Both the position numbers and the translations under genes were made by a program. A stretch of DNA of 44,920 nucleotides, from positions 66,916-111,835 of IMG/VR virus record IMGVR_UViG_3300022173_000112. One strand, written 5' to 3'. A model generated the notes under the pieces. That model worked only from the letters and a program-made list of their open reading frames with translations. It had not been told where the DNA came from and did not search any database. The stretch is from a virus (lineage: Duplodnaviria; Heunggongvirae; Uroviricota; Caudoviricetes). This document shows, piece after piece, positions 2,465-23,500 of this stretch. How positions within the stretch are numbered: the stretch's first letter is position 1; each line of letters starts with the position of its first letter.

Positions 2465-3445
2465 TTACGCAGCCGCCGGAGTTGCGGGAGCATTCAGCTT
2501 GGCGACTTCCTGCGCCGCTTCCTGAGCCTTGCGCTGAGCACGTTCGGCCGCGGCCTGAACGCGTTCGGCTTCGGCCGTCTTCTTGCGTTGTTCGTCCTTG
2601 GCCTTGGCGGCTTCGATCGAACGATTGTCAAGATGTACGGCGTACTTGAGGCCGAGGAGGAATCCTTCTTCGGCGGTCTTGATTCCAGCTTCGCGAACGA
2701 GCTGGGGTCCGATGACCGGCGTCTCAAGCTCTTGCTTGATTTCGGCGGTCTTGCGGGCACGGGCGACGGCGACGAAGCCTTCCGGATTCGCAGCGCGACC
2801 TTGACGGCGAGCCTTGTCGAGTTCCTGTTTGCGGGCCTGGACGGTTCCGCCGAACTCTTGAGGATTCATCGACTGGGCGCGATCAATGAACGCGGCCTGT
2901 TCGTCTTCCGGCAGCTTGGCCAGGACGTAGGCGTTGCTCAGATTGATTTTGCCACCATCGACGAGGGCACCGACGGTTGCCGTCAGCTTCGTGAGGCCGA
3001 GACGTTCCTTGAGCCACGTGTCGCTCTTGTGCAACTTCTGAGCCATCTGGCTGAAAGTCGTCAGAGGATTGCGACCCATGAGACGCTGGAGAGCCTTGCT
3101 GTACTCGACAGGCTTCGTCTCGATCTTGTGGATGTTGCCGAGGATTTGAGCTTCCTCGACTTCGGCGTCGCTCATCGACTTCACCTGAGCCGGGATCGTT
3201 TCTTTGCCGGCGTCGAGCGACCCGGTGTAACGATGCAGACCTTCGATGATTCCGTAGAAGATTTCGCCAGTGGTCGCGTCCTTGACTTCGCGGACGAGGA
3301 TGGGATTCAGGATGCCGACATCCTTGATGGAATCAACCAGCTGAATGTACTCGACATTCGTGCGGTTGACGCCACGCAACGCGACGGGATTCTCGCGAAT
3401 CTGTGCGAGCGGGATGTGCTTCAATTGGGTCAACTCATTGGACAT
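2465..3445 (-). CDS. parB: ParB/RepB/Spo0J family protein
   Basis: IPLAQIRENP...LVDSIKDVGILNPILVR...IIEGLHRY (ParB N-domain with GxxR), ENxxR-like GNIHKIET, HTH QMAQKLHKSDTWLKERLGL and an Ala/Lys-rich coiled C-terminus. Confidence 0.92.
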   Translation of the reverse strand: MSNELTQLKHIPLAQIRENPVALRGVNRTNVEYIQLVDSIKDVGILNPILVREVKDATTGEIFYGIIEGLHRYTGSLDAGKETIPAQVKSMSDAEVEEAQILGNIHKIETKPVEYSKALQRLMGRNPLTTFSQMAQKLHKSDTWLKERLGLTKLTATVGALVDGGKINLSNAYVLAKLPEDEQAAFIDRAQSMNPQEFGGTVQARKQELDKARRQGRAANPEGFVAVARARKTAEIKQELETPVIGPQLVREAGIKTAEEGFLLGLKYAVHLDNRSIEAAKAKDEQRKKTAEAERVQAAAERAQRKAQEAAQEVAKLNAPATPAAA

Positions 3446-3498
3446 GGATCAAACTCCAGAGTGGGTTGCGATTCTTGGATCGCGGTTGAAAATCGTTC

Positions 3499-3830
3499 AC
3501 GAATCAAATCTGATTTGATTCACGGTGAAGCGGGATAGCCTCATATAGCATGGTCCGAAACGGTTTCTTTTGTTTCACGAATTCCAGCGAACCCGCCTAT
3601 CTATAATGGCGCGAATTCCGCCAGCTGCGCCGCCCTCCGCGCCGCCCTACTATTTTCTTCCCTTTTCCTTACTCTTTAATGGCGAACCCTTTTAGAGTTC
3701 CTCGCATTAAAAGAGTAAGGGAAGGGAAGAAAATAGTAGGTCAACAATTCTTGAAACAATTCGGCACGTTTCGGACCATGCTAAATAGACCCGTCTTTCT
3801 GTAATGTGAATCCAATCAGATTTGATTCGT
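3499..3830. repeat. nested inverted-repeat control region between divergent parB and primase (candidate origin / twin promoter-operator)
   Basis: IR pairs: 3499-3523/3806-3830 (25 bp, 1 mismatch), 3546-3562/3767-3783 (17 bp, perfect), 3570-3583/3746-3759 (14 bp, 1 mismatch), 3646-3681/3705-3740 (about 36 bp, near-perfect). Direct repeat gcgccgccct at 3627 and 3639. Confidence 0.9.
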
Positions 3831-3845
3831 AAATGGAGGATTCCT

Positions 3846-6548
3846 GTGCTGAGAAGCGAAGCAATCAAAAAATTGCTCGTTGCTAAAACCCATGCTGACC
3901 TGGCGGAAATGTATTCCAAAAACATGGAAGTTCAATTCAATGTCGCTCAAGATGGTGGCGATCGAATTGAAGAAGATTTCAAGGGGCGAACACTCCACAG
4001 TTATACCGATGGTATCAACAAGTGGAGTCACTTTCGGATTCCGCGTAATGCGAAGACCGAACCCGAAGATAATGATTGCCCCGTGTATGGGGACATCTAT
4101 CAACATGCCGAAGGCGTTGGCATGACGGGTTGGGACTGGCAGAATCGCTTGAGCCGATGGGTCGCCTACGATTTCGACGCCATGACAGGTCACTCGGATA
4201 AGCACGAGAAGAAGATGACCGACGAGGAGCTTCAACAACTCCGAGAAGTAGTATCCGCGATTCCGTGGGTCACTATCCGATTATCAACGTCAGGCAAGGG
4301 TATCCACCTGTACGTGATGCTTGACCCAGTACCCACGCAGAATCATACGGAACACGCCGCCCTCGCTCGGGCGATTCTTGGGTTGATGGCTTCGATTACT
4401 GGCTACGATTTTCAATCGAAGGTTGACACCTGCGGCGGTAACATGTGGGTCTGGCATCGTAAGATGACCGGCACCAAAGGATTATCCGTCGTAAAGCAAG
4501 GAACGATTCTTACGGAGATTCCTCAGAACTGGCGTGATCATGTACGCGTCGTGAGTGGTGCGGCACGTCGCACGTTGCCTGCGTTCGTTACGGAGAACAG
4601 CGAAGCGAACCCGAACCTCGAAGACATGTTTGAGGAAGTAACCGGCACGAAGACTTTGATTCCGCTCGACAATGAACACAAGCGATTAATCGCTTTCATG
4701 CACGAGAACAGATGTTGTGCATGGTGGGATCAAGATCACCACATGCTTGTCACGCACACGGTACACCTGCAAGAAGCTTTCAACAAGCTGAATCTTAAGG
4801 GAGTGTTCAAGACAAATGCGAAAGGTGAAAATTACGGGCAAGACCATAACTGCTTCGCTTATCCACTTAGAAGGGGTGCTTGGGCAGTTCGTCGGTATAC
4901 ACCGGGGGTTGCCGAGGAATCGACGTGGGATCAAGATGGGCAAGGATGGACTCGATGCTACTTCAATCGAGAACTTGATCTCGCAACTGCGTGTCGCGCA
5001 TTCAATGCTAATGAAGATGAGAGCGGAGGTTATGTCTTTCGAGAAGCAGAAGTTGCAGCCAAAGCCGCAACTCTCCTTGGAATCGACCTTGGCATCCCTT
5101 CCTGGGCTAATACTCGATCCGCCCTGATTAAGAAGGGTAAGGATGGAAAGTACATTGCCCAGATGGACGCGACCGAACATGATGACCCACGAGAGATGAC
5201 CCAATGGAATCGTAAGGGGAAGAAGTGGTCACGTGTCTTGAGCGGTAAGGCAGAGGTTGCACCCGAGACCGAGGGTCGTAACTACGACGAAGTTTGCCGG
5301 CATATAATCAGTTCGGCCCATTCCAATTTGGGCTGGCTGTTACGTGCAGAGAAGGAATGGATTGACGAGCCATTGAATCATGTGTCCATTGGCTTGAAAG
5401 GAATCGTCGGCAAGCAAGCTCTCGTGGATACGATCCTGGGCGAAGCGGCACTCAAGCCGTGGAAGATCGTGTGCAGACCGTTCGAACCTGAGTACCCCAA
5501 GATCGCGGGTCGCGTGTGGAATCGGAACGCACCACAATTGCGATTCCGTCCCACGAATGCAGACACGCTCTCGTATCCGACATGGCTCAAGATTCTTACA
5601 CATTGTGGCAAGAGTCTGAACGAACCGATCAAGAAGAATAACTGGGCCAAGGGTGCAGGTATTCTTACTGGTGCTGATTACTTGAAGGTATGGCTCGCAT
5701 CGCTCTTCCAAGAGCCGTTGTGTCCATTGCCTTACTTGTTCTTTTATGGACCACAAGATAGTGGTAAATCTATCTTCCATGAAAGCATCAGGAATTGTTT
5801 GGTTACATCAGGAGTCGTGCGTGCGGATACGGCGCTGATTAATCAGCAAGGGTTCAACAGTGAATTGGAAAAAGCTGTTCTATGTGTGGTTGAAGAAACC
5901 AACATGAAGAAGAACAAAGTGGCCTATAATCGTATTAAGGATTGGGTCACTTCGGAAGAGCTTCCTATTCACCCGAAGACAAAGACGCCCTACAGTGTTC
6001 TTAATACAACACACTGGGTGCAGACGGCGAATGAAGCAGACGCCGTTCCTGTGATGGAAGGTGACACCCGAATCGTTATGGCTTTTGTCGATGAGCTTTC
6101 TCCTACGGATAAGATTCCTAAGAAGATTCTCATGCAGAAGCTGATGAAGGAAGCACCTGACTTCATTGCAGAGTTGTTGAGAATTCAACTTCCAGATTCT
6201 AACGACCGTTTGAATGTGCCGGTCATTGCGACCGAAGAGAAGATTCGTGCACAGCAAGCGAGCCAGAGCTATCTTGATATGTTCTTGGCTGAGCGTTATT
6301 ATTACGTCCCTGGCGAAACGATCCAATTCAAGGAACTTGTGGATGCGTTCCATGAATGGTTGCCGGGGAATGAACGTGATAACTGGATGATGAAAACCAT
6401 TGGGGAATCGTTGCCGGATAAATACGTTAAGGGACGTAGCCCGTCCACTAACCAAGTTATCGTTGGTAACATCTCCAAGAATAAAGATGCAAAGCCTGGG
6501 AAGGTTTTGGTTATTCGCAACGAAAAACTCGTACCATCGGAGACCTAA
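3846..6548 (+). CDS. primase-polymerase (AEP) fused to an SF3/DUF5906-type helicase
   Basis: GTG start at 3846 after GGAGG. AEP motifs YDFD and STSGKGIHLY; C-terminal Walker A FYGPQDSGKS, Walker B LCVVEE and motif C HWVQTAN. Confidence 0.92.
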   Translation: MLRSEAIKKLLVAKTHADLAEMYSKNMEVQFNVAQDGGDRIEEDFKGRTLHSYTDGINKWSHFRIPRNAKTEPEDNDCPVYGDIYQHAEGVGMTGWDWQNRLSRWVAYDFDAMTGHSDKHEKKMTDEELQQLREVVSAIPWVTIRLSTSGKGIHLYVMLDPVPTQNHTEHAALARAILGLMASITGYDFQSKVDTCGGNMWVWHRKMTGTKGLSVVKQGTILTEIPQNWRDHVRVVSGAARRTLPAFVTENSEANPNLEDMFEEVTGTKTLIPLDNEHKRLIAFMHENRCCAWWDQDHHMLVTHTVHLQEAFNKLNLKGVFKTNAKGENYGQDHNCFAYPLRRGAWAVRRYTPGVAEESTWDQDGQGWTRCYFNRELDLATACRAFNANEDESGGYVFREAEVAAKAATLLGIDLGIPSWANTRSALIKKGKDGKYIAQMDATEHDDPREMTQWNRKGKKWSRVLSGKAEVAPETEGRNYDEVCRHIISSAHSNLGWLLRAEKEWIDEPLNHVSIGLKGIVGKQALVDTILGEAALKPWKIVCRPFEPEYPKIAGRVWNRNAPQLRFRPTNADTLSYPTWLKILTHCGKSLNEPIKKNNWAKGAGILTGADYLKVWLASLFQEPLCPLPYLFFYGPQDSGKSIFHESIRNCLVTSGVVRADTALINQQGFNSELEKAVLCVVEETNMKKNKVAYNRIKDWVTSEELPIHPKTKTPYSVLNTTHWVQTANEADAVPVMEGDTRIVMAFVDELSPTDKIPKKILMQKLMKEAPDFIAELLRIQLPDSNDRLNVPVIATEEKIRAQQASQSYLDMFLAERYYYVPGETIQFKELVDAFHEWLPGNERDNWMMKTIGESLPDKYVKGRSPSTNQVIVGNISKNKDAKPGKVLVIRNEKLVPSET

Positions 6549-6746: not shown

Positions 6747-7027
6747 AAGTCATAGCGTTCGCAAATGACGCCAAGCGTATGGCAATCCGGTTCTTGAGCC
6801 AAGAAATTCGGCTCAAGCATCCGGGTTGCAATATCTTGGTGATCGCAGCAAATCATGTCAAGCTGGAGAATCTATGCAAAGTAGATTACTGCTTCTTGAC
6901 AGAGGCGGCACCTTGCGAGGTTGCCGCCTTGGATGGAAAGCTCTACACTCTAACGGGTGTTCCTGAGCAAACGATGAGAGAGTATCACGCGGAAGTAATG
7001 GCATTGCTACCGGAGATTCTTGCATGA
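6743..7027 (+). CDS. hypothetical protein
   Basis: 94-aa ORF with ATGA overlaps at both ends. Confidence 0.7.
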   Translation: MKVIAFANDAKRMAIRFLSQEIRLKHPGCNILVIAANHVKLENLCKVDYCFLTEAAPCEVAALDGKLYTLTGVPEQTMREYHAEVMALLPEILA

Positions 7028-7896
7028 GTGAAGACCTGTTGCGTATCTACGCAGACCTGGATGACACGGCAGTCACGCGTGAGAACTACGTTCGTGCACC
7101 GTTCAATTACCCTGGCAATAAGAAGGAATCACTTGAACACTTACTTCCCTTGCTCCCCACTACTGACGTTTGGGTTGATGTGTTTGGTGGTACTGGAGTT
7201 GTCACTCTTAATCGCCGTCCTTCGAGACTCGAAGTCTTTAATGACCGATGGAGTGGTATTGTTGCTTTCTATCGTTGCATACGTGAGCCTGCGAAGCTTG
7301 ATGCCCTAATCGAAAGACTTCGGTTGTGCGTCCACTCGCGTGAAGAGTTCATGTGGTGCAAGCAAACCTGGGAAAATCCCACGGACGATGTCGAACGAGC
7401 GGCACGTTGGTACTACATGATTCAATGTAGTTTCGCTTGCCGTGGGTTGTTCTTCGGCCGAGTCCTCGGACCGGCCACACCGATTGCAAAGAAGATTTCG
7501 GAAAATCTTCCATTGTTCTATGAAGTCCATCTTCGGATGCGGGATGTTCAAGTTGAGAACTTGGACTTCCGAGAATGCTTCAAGGACTACGATTCCTCAC
7601 AAACAGTCTTTTACCTTGATCCACCCTACTACGAAAACAACATCTACGCCATCAACTTCACAAAGCAAGACCATGTAGAAATGCTCGACAAGGTTTTCAA
7701 GCTGAAAGGCTTCGTTGCGTTGTCCGGGTATAAGAACGATTTGTACGACAAGTTCCCCTGGGACTCAGTGCACAACTGGTCACGCCAAGATAAGATGGCT
7801 ACGATGTCTACAAAAACTGATACCAGTTGCGTAGCAGGGTTGGATATTGAGCGTGAAGAGAAAACTGAGTACCTCTGGATCAAGGAGGCATATTAA
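7024..7896 (+). CDS. dam: DNA adenine methyltransferase (Dam/D12 class)
   Basis: APFNYPGNK, motif I VDVFGGTGVV, VFND and motif IV FYLDPPY. Confidence 0.95.
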   Translation: MSEDLLRIYADLDDTAVTRENYVRAPFNYPGNKKESLEHLLPLLPTTDVWVDVFGGTGVVTLNRRPSRLEVFNDRWSGIVAFYRCIREPAKLDALIERLRLCVHSREEFMWCKQTWENPTDDVERAARWYYMIQCSFACRGLFFGRVLGPATPIAKKISENLPLFYEVHLRMRDVQVENLDFRECFKDYDSSQTVFYLDPPYYENNIYAINFTKQDHVEMLDKVFKLKGFVALSGYKNDLYDKFPWDSVHNWSRQDKMATMSTKTDTSCVAGLDIEREEKTEYLWIKEAY

Positions 7897-9109: not shown

Positions 9110-9191
9110 ATCACGCGAGGTCGTATACAACTCTGGAGTAACATCCAGCGGCGGTCCATCTCCGAAAGAGAAACGGATGTCGCGGCGTGAT
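9110..9191 (+). ncRNA. unassigned structured RNA candidate A
   Basis: Closing stem atcacgc/gcgtgat; hairpins ctgga-GTAACA-tccag and tctc-cGAAA-gaga; ends 4 nt before tRNA-Arg. Confidence 0.45.
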
Positions 9192-9195
9192 ATCT

Positions 9196-9269
<74 letters not shown>

Positions 9270-9274
9270 ATGTA

Positions 9275-9356
9275 GGGAACGTGGCCGAACGGTAAGGCAC
9301 AGCCCTGATAAGGCTGCGTGCGAAAGCACTAGCAGGTTCGACTCCTGCCGATCCCA
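9275..9356 (+). tRNA. trnI: tRNA with GAT (Ile) anticodon and a type II long variable arm
   Basis: GGGAACG/CGATCCC, D-arm GCC/GGC, CAGCC-CT GAT AA-GGCTG, variable arm GTGC-GAAA-GCAC, GCAGG-TTCGACT-CCTGC, A73. Confidence 0.85.
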
Positions 9357-12393: not shown

Positions 12394-12398
12394 TTCTC

Positions 12399-12473
12399 GG
12401 GCCGTTAGCTCCTAACTGGTAGAGCGCCTGCCTTGCAAGCAGGAGGTTGTGGGTTCAAATCCCACACGGTCCA
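12399..12473 (+). tRNA. trnA: tRNA-Ala(TGC)
   Basis: GGGCCGT/ACGGTCC with G3:U70, CCTGC-CT TGC AA-GCAGG, TTCAAAT. Confidence 0.94.
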
Positions 12474-12485
12474 TTGGAGATTGAA

Positions 12486-12647
12486 ATGGAACTTTTAATT
12501 AAGAAGTGGCGTGCCGAAGCAAATGATTTGGGGCGTCGCTTAAGAAGTGGTTCTTACATTGACCAACAACAACGTGCTGCTTATAGTGCGAAGATGAAAA
12601 CTCTTCGTGCTTGCATCAAAGAACTCAAAGGGATTGGTTATGGCTAG
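12486..12647 (+). CDS. hypothetical protein (53 aa)
   Basis: Start at MELLIKK after GGAG; helical and basic. Confidence 0.55.
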   Translation: MELLIKKWRAEANDLGRRLRSGSYIDQQQRAAYSAKMKTLRACIKELKGIGYG

Positions 12648-12816
12648 ACCATTGCTAGACTTGGTTGATCAAGTTGCGAAGGAACCAACGAAGAGAGACT
12701 TGCAAGAACTTCGACTAAGAATCGAGGCGATCCAACGCGGGGTTGATGATTACCCGCCAGACCTTTGCATGGTGCATGTTAAGGATATCTTGCAAGGAAA
12801 TTGTATCACTTATTGA
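12640..12816 (+). CDS. hypothetical protein (58 aa)
   Basis: Start at MARPLL, overlapping the previous stop. Confidence 0.55.
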   Translation: MARPLLDLVDQVAKEPTKRDLQELRLRIEAIQRGVDDYPPDLCMVHVKDILQGNCITY

Positions 12817-12821
12817 AACAT

Positions 12822-12894
12822 TCCCCGGTAGCACAACTGGTAGTGCAACTCGCTGTTAACGAGTAGGTTGTAGGTTCGAATCCTACCTGGGGAG
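12822..12894 (+). tRNA. trnN: tRNA-Asn(GTT)
   Basis: TCCCCGG/CTGGGGA, ACTCG-CT GTT AA-CGAGT, TTCGAAT, G73. Confidence 0.94.
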
Positions 12895-14760: not shown

Positions 14761-15698
14761 TAGCCTACTCCTGGTCCAGTTGGGTTGAAAGGATCAGAGA
14801 TTGGGTAGTTACAATACTGGTAACTATTGGGCTTCGGAATCGCATACGGGTCAAGAGTCGTTCCAGCGTGCCAACCTTCAATATCGTGCCAACCAGTATC
14901 CCAGCCAACTGCTTCAACCGTTGCACCTACCCCTTGGACAACACCAAGGGGATTATTGTAGTACACTGATACAATACCATCAGAAAAATTCAAATGGTGT
15001 GTAGACCAGTGTGGACAATCGATGAAAAGATTGCGTTCATACGGCGGACCCAACATTGCGTAGTAGGTCACACCTTGACTAAAAGTTGTATCAGACAACT
15101 TGTAGTGAACGTAGCTTTCAATCAACCCATCCTTGCTATCCCACACGAAAGGGTTGATACTTGGGTTTGGATAGCCTTGTGCATCGTGAGCCGCTAGGTA
15201 CACTTTGCATGTTGCCGATCCAGCACTGTAGCCAAGACCCTGCATGAACTCTGTAGCAGGTGCTTCGTTTGAAGAAAAAGTTTCCTCAAATGGCATCTTC
15301 GCATCTCGCTGCCAATTCCTGATGTACACTTTCGGTTCCGCACCAGCACCATTGTTACCAATGGTGTGGGCAAAACCAATTGTGATTCGCAGTCGGATAC
15401 TGTCCTGACCGTTGACCCAAGGACATTTATTGAGTCGCAATTTCCTTCGCAGAATCGTTCCTTTCTTACCGTACTTCTCGGTTGCCGAATCAACACAGAT
15501 TCCAGTACCACCTTCAAAGCCCATGACGGTAGCAACATTCTTGCCAACCATCGGGCGGCTCGACATAGGAGACAGCCCGTATGGTTGCAAGTTGTTGGAA
15601 TCGGAATCCATATCCGTCAGCCTGAGAACTTTCGTCAACATACCAGCGGTAAGTTGCTTGCCGTCCCAGGTTACTTCGTCACCATATGTTAGAGCCAT
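14760..15698 (-). CDS. hypothetical tail-associated protein
   Basis: 312 aa, overlaps the hub gene end; Gly/aromatic-rich. Confidence 0.6.
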   Translation of the reverse strand: MALTYGDEVTWDGKQLTAGMLTKVLRLTDMDSDSNNLQPYGLSPMSSRPMVGKNVATVMGFEGGTGICVDSATEKYGKKGTILRRKLRLNKCPWVNGQDSIRLRITIGFAHTIGNNGAGAEPKVYIRNWQRDAKMPFEETFSSNEAPATEFMQGLGYSAGSATCKVYLAAHDAQGYPNPSINPFVWDSKDGLIESYVHYKLSDTTFSQGVTYYAMLGPPYERNLFIDCPHWSTHHLNFSDGIVSVYYNNPLGVVQGVGATVEAVGWDTGWHDIEGWHAGTTLDPYAIPKPNSYQYCNYPISDPFNPTGPGVG

Positions 15699-20540: not shown

Positions 20541-23500
20541 TTAAGCATTACCACGCCGTTGTTCGCGACGTATGATTTTCATGACTGCACGAGCAGTCTG
20601 TTCAGGACTGTCAGAACCGCTAACATTGAAGGTCATGTTACCGATGCTGCTATTCGTCACGGTTCCACCATGAGCATAACCACCACCGCGTGGTGAGTCA
20701 CCACGATTCATGCGAACAAGTGTCGCATAAAACTTCTGTGTCGATTCCGGGTTCATAACGAATTCGCCGCGTCGTGCACGAATCATTACGTTGTCCGGTC
20801 CGAAATTGGAAAACATGTTTCCAATCAAACCACCTTCTGCATACCCTTGCGGGTTTACCATATTTCCATTGATGATAACAGGTGGCGGAGCCGGTGGCGG
20901 AATCACTAACGGTGGAGGGATGTTGATGATTACCGGTGTCGGTCCATTCTGAATAACTGGCAACGGTATAGCACCTTGAACCGGTGGTCCTACTGGTGCT
21001 TGTACTGGCCCATTCTGAATGACCGGTGCGGCCGGTGTTGCTGGTGCTGCTGGTGCTGCTGGTGCTGCCCCTGGTCCCCCAAGGATTCCAGGTGGCACAA
21101 GTCCAGCAATACCTTGCAACCCTGTTCTGATTCTTTCGCCCAGGGTTCTCAACGCTTCCGGCGCTTGGTCTACAGCACGCTGTACAACATCCATTCCTTG
21201 CCGCCCAACACCAACCAATGTCTCACCAGCACGCCGAGTTCTCTCAGCTTGGACTCGTGCATTAGCTTCGGCAATCGTTGCCTCAGCCCTGGTTCGAGCT
21301 TCGGTCACTTCCGTGAGGCGATTCATCGCAACACGAAGTGCCTCAGCACCCGCCGGTGTGTTTATCAAACCGTCAGCCCGTGGCGTGGTTGGTGTAAGAC
21401 CACGACCAATTTGCAATCGGTGGAACAATTCGGCAACTGCTCTCGTTGCCTCTTGTGCCGCTGCAATATCTGCCGGTCTGCCAGAAGTAACAGCTTGAGT
21501 GTTCAAGCGTTCTGCTTCTGTAATGGCAACGTGCAAATCTCTTGCACGCTGAGTACTCAAAGCATCCGCACCTTCTGCGACAAGTTGTCTTGCACCGCCA
21601 AAGGTTCTCGGATCAGGTACAGCCCCTCGAATCTCACCCAGTGTGACCTGAGCAGCCCGCAGAGCATCAATCTGCTGTTGCCTTGCAGCAGTAGCATCAG
21701 CCGTTGCCTTGTCCGTATTCCTTGCGATCTCAGCCAACAGACCGATTTGCTCACGTTGGTTAGCTTCACTGACTCGCCTTGCCTCAGCATTCTGAAACAA
21801 AGCTTGCGTTGCAAGTCGTTGAGACTCCAACTGGAGAGTCAGAGCTTGAACTTCTTGCGGAGTCGGTGCACGCCTACGAGCTTGTTCAGCTTGTTCAGGA
21901 GTGATTGCACCAGTACGCAAAGCGTCAGCAATACCGGCTTCAATCGAAGCTGGCAATGCTTCAACACGAGCAATCTGCTGATCAATAGTTCTATTGATCT
22001 GTGCTGTAGCGTCTCGTCCGCCAGAAGCACCCTGGAAGTTCTCGCGTGGCTTTCCATCCGGGTTAAGCAATTGATTCGGCAGACGAGATACATTACGTTG
22101 ACCTTCTTGAACCAATCGAAGTTGCTCACGCAATTGTCGATTGATACCTTCAAGTACAACTTGTTGTGCAGCCAATCGTCTACGATTCGCTGCCTCGAAT
22201 GCTTCTTCCGCAGCATTGAGTCGTCTCGCCCCTTCTTCCCGTTCACGGTTGAATGGGTTGAAAGTTTGATCCTGCCCAGTAGACCTTGCACGGAACTCGG
22301 CGTTGCGTCGCGAAGAGCCGGCACGAATGTCGTTCTCTTGGTCGTTCAACTGACGAAGTTCGGCAAACTTTCTACGGGCCGATTCAATACTGTTTGCGTC
22401 ACCCTTAGCTTCAAGCTGACGAATCTCTTCCATCAGCCGTTGTCTACGGTCACGAATCAGATTCAACTGGCTAGTCGCACCAGCGTCTTGAGCATTCAGG
22501 AGTTTCGCAGCATTGTCCTGTTGCTGTGGACTTGTGAATCTCGATGTTTGCGAAACATCAGCAAGACTCTTCAACCGATCTTGGAACGATTCCTTGTTCG
22601 TCTTCTCGGCAAATTCCTGAACTCGCTTCAACGATTCCATGATGCGAGATTCAGCTTGTCTTGCGACATTTTCCATCGACTCGATTTGCGAACCGAATGC
22701 ACCGAAGACCGATTTGCTAGACGCTTCGATTTCTTCACCGAGCGTATGAACTCGTTCTCGTTGCAGTTCAGCTTGACGGTTCAGTGCAGCATTGACTGGC
22801 AAGAAAGTATTTGCAATCGCTTGCGTACCTTCTTGCAAAGCTGTTCGAGTAAATTGGCGTTGACCGGCTGCCCAAGTGTTAGTACGTTCCATCGATTCGC
22901 GAGCAGCTTCATTGAACTGCTGCATTGCTTCGCGATTGAGTCTTGTGGCCCGGTTAAGGATACCGAACCATTCAGCAAGTCTCTCAACTTGTTGGGCCAG
23001 AACAACCGCACCAGCAGCAACCAAAGCAATTGGTTCAACCAGTGCTGCAATCAACCGACCAGTGTCAGTGATTACATTTGCCAATCCACCAGCACGATCA
23101 GCCATGCTGAGAATCGTGTTGATGATTCTCGGACCGATTTCGCCGACGAAGACCGTCTTGATTTTCTCAAGTTCGTCATTCCACCGACCTGTCGCATCCA
23201 CAACTCGCAAAGCAGCGTCAGCCGTATTGTTTAATCCTTCAACATTGTCTAAAGGATTACCACCACGCTGTCTTTGTTGGAAGGAATCAGCAACACTCAG
23301 ACCGCCACCAGCACGACGACTCTGAACAGCTTGCCGTGCTTGAATGTTACCTTCATCAATATTGCGATTGATGTACTGGAGTGCCCCGCCCAATCGTTGG
23401 GCTTGAATCAATTGCTGAGGGCTAAAGATTCCATCGCCAGCCATCAAGTCACGCATTCGTTGCGTAGGCCGTTCGATGGAATTCATCACCGCGCCGAGTT

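Follow-up and report, generated by a model that had tools for sequence, protein, structure and literature searches.

A mirror-image region between a ParB-like gene and a primase-helicase gene of a large uncultured phage as the probable site of twin promoter–operator cassettes of a ParA-less, KorB-like ParB

The 400-bp gap that separates a minus-strand ParB-like gene from a plus-strand primase-helicase gene in a large uncultured phage contains two mirror-image modules, and, as judged by comparison with related sequences, this mirror-image region is real and under selection. We propose that the modules are probably twin promoter–operator cassettes, controlled by a ParA-less, KorB-like ParB protein. 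We established the anatomy of the region, the selection that acts on its blocks, the family-wide conservation of its outer box, and the link of this box to promoters and to the type of the ParB recognition helix. The window, by which we mean the whole stretch of DNA that was analyzed, comprises the last 44,920 bases of an IMG/VR virus record of 111,835 bases that is rated 100% complete. Positions are those of the window, unless they are given for the whole record (G000) or for one of the related loci.

Results

Two divergent operons and their relatives

The ParB-like gene (2465–3445, minus strand) encodes a 326-aa protein that is the presumed binder of the palindromes described below, and it opens a leftward operon. 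Matches to ParB_N (1.3e-13) and HTH_ParB (2.6e-07) support the assignment, and a profile of the family matches the structures of Spo0J (1vz0, 1e-24) and KorB (8qa8, 4e-14). The primase-helicase gene (3846–6548, plus strand; 900 aa) starts with a GTG at 3846 that is preceded by a GGAGG ribosome-binding site at 3835–3839, its product matches DUF5906 (8.6e-15) and the DNA primase family phrog_1156 (6e-24), and it opens a rightward operon that continues with a methylase, an exonuclease, and further genes. In protein searches, the primase found only distant matches, about 26–30% identical, to primases of Achromobacter, Xanthomonas, and Curvibacter phages, and blastn of the gap region against named phages gave no match. 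The primase search yielded 46 related viral loci, 28 of which have a ParB-like gene upstream in divergent orientation, and ParB_N is present in 29 of 29 genes upstream of related primases. Two features of individual relatives may be recorded here: in L029 (3001–6726), the primase-helicase has 1241 aa and carries inside its helicase domain an intein with a LAGLIDADG endonuclease (Intein_splicing 5e-12, LAGLIDADG_3 7e-17), and in relatives whose ParB has an x-G-R-L helix, DnaA boxes (TTATCCACA) lie just upstream of the primase, namely in L038 (2657–2751), in L039 (2371–2431), and in the upstream regions of L104, L123, L131, and L107.

Anatomy of the mirror-image modules

The two modules, 88 nt each (3496–3583 and 3746–3833), are mirrored about a common center at 3664.5. 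They consist of three inverted pairs, namely 3496–3523/3806–3833 (28 nt, 93% identity), 3543–3562/3767–3786 (20 nt, 95%), and 3570–3583/3746–3759 (14 nt, 93%), and as all three pairs have the same center, the internal spacing is identical in both modules. The original prediction of three blocks, repeated in inverted orientation with equal internal spacing, was thus borne out. The modules were also found where 85-bp units had been described, but their length is 88 nt when the full matching arms are included, and the inner spacer, given earlier as 8 nt, measures 7 nt. When the left module is reverse-complemented and compared with the right one, the blocks are identical at 58 of 62 positions, and the spacers at 6 of 26, which is the chance level (Fisher p = 5.6e-11). 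The symmetry score of the region is 64 of 90, as compared to 33.8 ± 2.0 in shuffled sequences, with a maximum of 41. The 17-mer and the 21-mer have no further occurrence within the window. What is distinctive here is this blocky mirror of three islands with randomized spacers, together with an off-center 95-nt hairpin.

The outer block, in the following termed box, forms a palindrome of 21 bp whose half-site is GAATCAAATC. The left box (3496–3523) has its palindrome core, GAATCAAATC-T-GATTTGATTC, at 3501–3521, lies 56 nt upstream of the parB start codon, and is identical in L157, the closest relative that we found. The right box (3806–3833; core 3808–3828) lies 18 nt ahead of the GTG of the primase, immediately in front of the GGAGG, and it differs from its counterpart in L157 by one change at an already imperfect position. 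Both boxes have GANTC (GAATC and GATTC) at both ends (3501–3505, 3517–3521, 3808–3812, 3824–3828), and the primase operon includes a gene for a D12-class adenine methylase (7024–7896); the GANTC ends are not conserved in relatives.

Of the inner blocks, the left 20-nt block (3543–3562, minus strand) combines the invariant core TAGCATGGTCCGAAA with a −10-like end, TGcTATAT. It agrees with the right copy at 19 of 20 positions, shows one to three changes in comparison to L157, and is unique in the genome. The right 20-nt block (3767–3786, plus strand) has a GACCAT that follows 17 nt after a TTGAAA, and it ends in TGcTAAAT. The left 14-nt block (3570–3583, minus strand) reads AATTCGTGAAACAA towards parB and agrees with its right copy at 13 of 14 positions. 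This right copy (3746–3759, plus strand), AATTCTTGAAACAA, includes the TTGAAA and is identical in L157, and the TGAAACAA within the 14-nt block shows no change among the four copies, two in the window and two in L157.

Selection on the blocks

An exact search of public collections with the 17-mer returned 1 viral and 26 metagenome stretches, among which L157 is the one true relative; all other matches are single-copy with no box nearby and were therefore rejected as chance matches. L157 is a near-identical metagenome phage whose flanking primase coding DNA is 97.5% identical (585 of 600 nt). Between the window and L157, changes affect 7 of the 126 aligned positions in boxes and blocks, as compared to 17 of 56 in the spacers (p = 1.6e-5). 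Since the spacers are randomized, both between the two modules and in comparison to L157, while the blocks are fixed, the comparison agrees with the earlier suggestion that the blocks are held by selection for protein binding and do not reflect a recent duplication. An assembly artifact, which had been named as a possible explanation of the symmetry, is ruled out, since more than 25 independent metagenome contigs show this layout and L157 reproduces it almost to the base. The conservation in the more distant relative L012 is limited to four elements of the gap, namely the two boxes, the element ATAATGGCGC, and a part of the purine-rich arm of the hairpin. Mirrored inner sequence is found in most relatives, 12 of 28 of which reach z > 4.5 without gaps, and this sequence differs by lineage.

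The center of the region

Between the modules lie the three elements that the original prediction had placed there. The TATAAT is present at 3602–3607, as part of a rightward −10-like element, TATAATGGCGCG (3602–3613, plus strand), which is retained in L157 and is found as ATAATGGCGC in L012; a scan detected no −35 that would match it. The GC-rich direct repeat (3627–3647, plus strand) consists of the 9-mer GCGCCGCCC at 3627 and again at 3639. As this repeat is missing from L157 owing to a 24-nt indel, it is dispensable here. The hairpin (3646–3740), whose 5′ arm is rich in pyrimidines and whose 3′ arm is rich in purines, is a strong predicted fold (z = −8.0 as DNA, z = −8.8 as RNA). It had been described as central, but its own center is at 3693, 28 nt to the right of 3664.5. 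In L157, the hairpin is still well predicted (z = −7.2), and most changes fall into the loop; in L012, the fold is not significant (z = −1.3). A partial and inverted paralogue of the center exists at G000 9125–9290 (L056 1125–1290), in an 870-bp gap without a long ORF, and it contains a GC-rich box, a CCTACTA..TAGTAGG pyrimidine/purine segment, and GTCAA. It folds poorly and lies near the cumulative GC-skew maximum.

One could assume that the hairpin acts as RNA, transcribed from the TATAAT at 3602 to give either a small RNA or a primase mRNA with a long structured leader. The strength of the RNA fold, the conservation of TATAATGGCGC in L157 and L012, and the fact that the stems are more conserved than the loop in the comparison with L157 would be in line with this idea. 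However, neither a −35 nor a terminator accompanies the putative transcription unit, no double compensatory change is seen between the window and L157, and the fold is not conserved in L012 or in the paralogue at 9.1 kb. In addition, Rfam searches of both box loci and of this paralogue gave only generic long-hairpin (miRNA-precursor) matches below the threshold. We therefore consider a function as structured RNA distinctly improbable.

The box is conserved in the family and marks a second locus upstream of a sigma-factor gene

The conservation of the blocks in related phages, which had been called for as a check, was found for the outer box, which occurs family-wide in the divergent ParB-like/primase-helicase pair. 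The 8-mer GATTTGAT or its complement is 40-fold enriched in the 700 bp that precede the primase (2.6 per kb, as compared to 0.064 per kb in the rest of the 46 loci), and GATTTGAT is present in 20 of 27 intergenic regions versus 0 of 27 coding controls. The usual layout in relatives is one box near each gene start, with a distance of about 200–470 bp between the two.

Within the whole genome, the 10-bp half-site occurs only in the gap and at G000 51461–51483 and 51783–51820. The latter two sites define a second, non-coding locus outside the window (G000 51380–51830; L005 3380–3830; fold z = −5.2), 19 kb from the gap, in which two palindromes bracket a 400-bp region upstream of a 215-aa gene. 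This gene (L005 2732–3379, minus strand) encodes a sigma factor, according to its match to the SigF structure 1l0o (E = 7e-15) and to phrog_351. The two loci have in common the box, the 9-mer GCGCCGCCC, and an element of the TTATTGGCGCGAA type that is similar to TATAATGGCGCG; the four occurrences of the 9-mer in 112 kb are two in the gap and two at the second locus. At each locus, the paired boxes are about 310–340 bp apart, with the putative promoters between them. The order of a 152-aa gene, boxes, and the sigma gene is also found in G001 and G003, and boxes are present upstream of the sigma gene in 6 of 6 genomes examined.

In G003, a 95-nt unit occurs twice that consists of a box, 23 nt, TTGACA, 17 nt, TGtTAAGAT, 26 nt, and a second box. 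These units tie the box to ordinary host-type promoters away from replication genes. The two copies are at L054 1440–1560 and 6040–6160, with the boxes in direct orientation; one is found directly in front of the sigma gene, and the other behind a tRNA-like stretch.

Promoter elements in the modules

A consensus scan of 3350–3950 detected no sigma-70 promoter at threshold. There are weak candidates, namely TTGAAA/GTGAAA with GACCAT at a distance of 17 nt, inside the invariant parts of the blocks, and TGcTAAATA/TGcTATATG, with which the 20-nt block ends. Both candidate −10 elements are weak, GACCAT as well as TAAATA/TATATG, which lacks the final T. In relatives, the sequence common to both sides always ends in a −10-like hexamer, and in many of them a sigma-70-like −35 is found at 17 nt, along with an upstream palindrome of the GTAAGTCAC type. 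Together with the consensus sigma-70 promoter that is bracketed by boxes in G003, this speaks for the earlier idea of twin co-regulated divergent promoters. In many relatives, for example at L007 2712–2739 and L029 2729–2756, a near-perfect CGTAAGTCAC..GTGACTTACG-type palindrome and then a T-rich run come before each promoter, and GACTTAC occurs in 12 of 27 gaps versus 0 of 27 coding controls. Such a palindrome might bind a second regulator or act as an insulating terminator.

A further part of the original prediction, that the promoters follow a non-sigma70 consensus, was not supported, as TGAAAC...CATGCTA is found only at the two module sites in 112 kb. We also searched for TGAAAC-N16-22-CATNNTA and for 8-mers of the blocks, and these were likewise confined to the two module sites; as they are found nowhere else in 112 kb, the blocks do not represent a promoter class of the phage's own sigma factor. 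For contacts with RNA polymerase, the 20-nt and 14-nt blocks would not have to be so long, and they are unique in the genome; at least one further factor is therefore needed to account for them.

Covariation of box type and ParB recognition helix

Eighty ParB loci from a second search form 66 clusters at 90% identity. With raw counts and kinship ignored, two or more boxes are found in 11 of 11 clusters in which a Q precedes the conserved W of the ParB helix. With an S before the W, the box is found in 3 of 16 clusters, and a variant, GATTTTGA, is found instead (kinship ignored as well), and with an x-G-R-L helix the box is found in 0 of 5 clusters, again irrespective of kinship, and a parB-side palindrome, ATCACATC..GATGTGAT, takes its place. 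The group with a KTxxWISER helix carries TGTTAAGC. L118 and L124 have the same ParB helix and differ in box content. Over the 66 clusters, with kinship ignored, the box type thus tracks the recognition helix of the ParB. The genome encodes four further ParB-like paralogues with different helices, all outside the window and on the minus strand (G000 20906–21814, 12395–12859, 64689–65534, and 15032–15394), and 0 of 4 are next to a box. As the box type follows the helix and the paralogues with other helices are not near boxes, the neighboring ParB is the most economical candidate for the box binder. Two other assignments were rejected: TGTTTCAC as a parS half-site, an 8-mer that occurs 5 times in the genome, which is about the chance level, and an IHF site in the box, whose consensus, compared by eye, did not fit.

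In its N-domain, the ParB has GLHR, a form of the family-invariant G-L-x-R, where canonical CTP-binding ParBs have GERR, and one of the three arginines of GERRxR is kept. Since GLHR replaces GERR, a sliding-clamp mechanism like that of KorB is uncertain.

A ParB-family protein that adjoins palindromic sites, four of them over two loci, evokes a partition centromere, in which the palindromes, comparable to the SopB sites of N15, would be the parS sites of a ParABS system for the segregation of a plasmid-like prophage. However, no ParA-type ATPase (PF13614, PF01656) is encoded in the whole genome, which is rated complete, and neither are tyrosine or serine recombinases, integrases, or resolvases. 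Moreover, every site is at the start of a gene, and promoters are bracketed in relatives. The lack of a ParA and of a recombinase makes both a classical partition system and an invertible switch unlikely, and we regard the centromere as very improbable. In the case of the switch, inverted repeats would flank a segment that recombines, so that the TATAAT and the hairpin drive either gene, and inverted repeats around an asymmetric center with a perfect −10 hexamer are indeed the arrangement that one would expect. Yet this center has the same orientation in the window, in L157, and in L012, and the spacers are randomized, a divergence that recombination between the arms would tend to erase. There is thus hardly any probability left for an invertible segment.

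Discussion

Four observations, namely the comparison with the orthologue L157, the locus at the sigma gene, the consensus promoter bracketed by boxes, and the covariation of helix and box, give weight to an operator and take it away from an origin as far as the boxes are concerned. In the model that we favor, the 400-bp gap would jointly control two divergent operons of replication genes, and each 88-nt module would be one promoter–operator cassette. Towards the gene, a cassette would be composed of the 14-nt block with its TGAAACAA core, the 20-nt block, a free spacer of 19 nt, and the palindromic box. The 20-nt block would supply the −10-like TGcTAwAT at its end as well as the GACCAT that follows 17 nt after TTGAAA/GTGAAA, and the exact start sites are putative. 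The box, situated between promoter and ribosome-binding site, would serve as operator or as loading site of the adjacent ParB, and the ParB would, without a ParA, regulate its own gene, the primase operon, and the phage sigma-factor gene, the presumed effect being repression. By bridging or spreading, ParB bound at the two boxes of a locus could shut down the DNA between them, where the promoters would lie. The inner blocks would be contacted by RNA polymerase and by the further factor mentioned above, a binder that we infer from their length and uniqueness.

The alternative with the most to be said for it is a replication origin, in which the mirrored blocks would be head-to-head loading pads for two hexamers of the SF3-type primase-helicase, and in which divergent transcription and the hairpin would aid DNA opening. 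The origins of SV40 and papillomaviruses and the alpha ori of P4 come to mind as analogues. The region is directly upstream of an initiator-type gene, its blocks are genome-unique and strictly mirrored, as expected of origin sites, and the hairpin is strong enough for cruciform extrusion. Moreover, the second locus bracketed by boxes, 19 kb away, recalls the ori/crr arrangement of P4, and the relatives with an x-G-R-L helix carry two to four perfect DnaA boxes on the primase side and nowhere else in their loci. However, in the phage analyzed here, there is neither a DnaA box nor an AT-rich unwinding element in 3446–3845, and the center at 3616–3645 has only 10–20% AT. If the lineage-specific blocks were bound by the primase, a lineage-variable domain would be expected in this protein, but an alignment of 22 full-length primases revealed no hypervariable segment, and the primase was therefore rejected as their binder. 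In some relatives, extra genes lie between parB and primase, and there the boxes remain at both operon starts and do not follow the primase gene; boxes also bracket ordinary promoters far from replication genes, and the hairpin is off-center and not conserved in L012. The local GC-skew minimum near 68–70 kb is uninformative in this respect, as it coincides with a switch in the direction of transcription. On balance, we see an origin as a tentative possibility that may coexist with promoters and operators in the same gap.

Such a coexistence can be taken one step further. The ParA-less ParB might load at the two boxes and close off about 300 bp that contain the twin promoters and, in the 14-nt and 20-nt blocks, the pads for the primase-helicase; upon its release, divergent transcription, hairpin extrusion, and bidirectional replication would all be set off together, and the same ParB would time the sigma factor. 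This combination of switch and origin is speculative, and we consider it doubtful.

If the proposed control by ParB is correct, a family of large uncultured freshwater phages retains a ParB without a ParA, whose boxes lie at both ends of the replication-gene control region and guard a sigma-factor gene. This would be a simple circuit, in which ParB acts on the replication genes and on the sigma factor, and KorB-like regulation would then also be known from phages whose lack of an integrase or resolvase gene suggests a lytic lifestyle. The covariation of helix and box over about 66 ParB clusters would furthermore offer a ready-made set of specificity variants for studying how a ParB-type HTH changes its target.

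Among known systems, the linear plasmid-prophage N15 has few palindromic SopB sites that are scattered over its genome, some of them in promoter regions where binding affects expression. The phage described here resembles N15 in that few palindromic sites, predicted for a ParB-family protein, are dispersed over a phage genome and lie in part in promoter regions, but N15 encodes a ParA, namely SopA, and exists as a plasmid prophage, and the present phage has no ParA. A second comparison is offered by the alpha ori/crr of phage P4 and by the Pri-Rep systems of SaPIs, where, as here, an SF3-type primase-helicase adjoins a repeat-bearing non-coding region and a second locus with the same repeats is found kilobases away. 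The origins of P4 and SaPIs have many short iterons and an AT-rich core and are bound by a specificity domain of the helicase. In contrast, there are two copies per block here, there is no AT-rich core, the primase lacks a variable domain, and the repeats track the helix of the ParB.

ParB-family proteins are best known for DNA segregation, and KorB of RK2 is the main example of a family member that acts as a global regulator of transcription. KorB, encoded by the IncP plasmid RK2, is a global repressor that acts through OB operators, and OB sites are present at several promoters, among them the one that drives KorB's own operon and the divergent ones at the replication-initiator gene; the sites are positioned upstream or downstream at variable distances (PMC11790492, PMC13768133). 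The phage system departs from KorB in several respects: it belongs to a large uncultured phage without an integrase or resolvase gene and not to a plasmid, it has no ParA/IncC partner, its ParB has GLHR rather than the GERR CTP motif, and its boxes are paired about 300 bp apart so that they bracket promoters, with a half-site spacing that varies among relatives. What the two systems share is a protein with a ParB_N domain and an HTH, and the same palindrome at several promoter regions, including that of the regulator's own gene.
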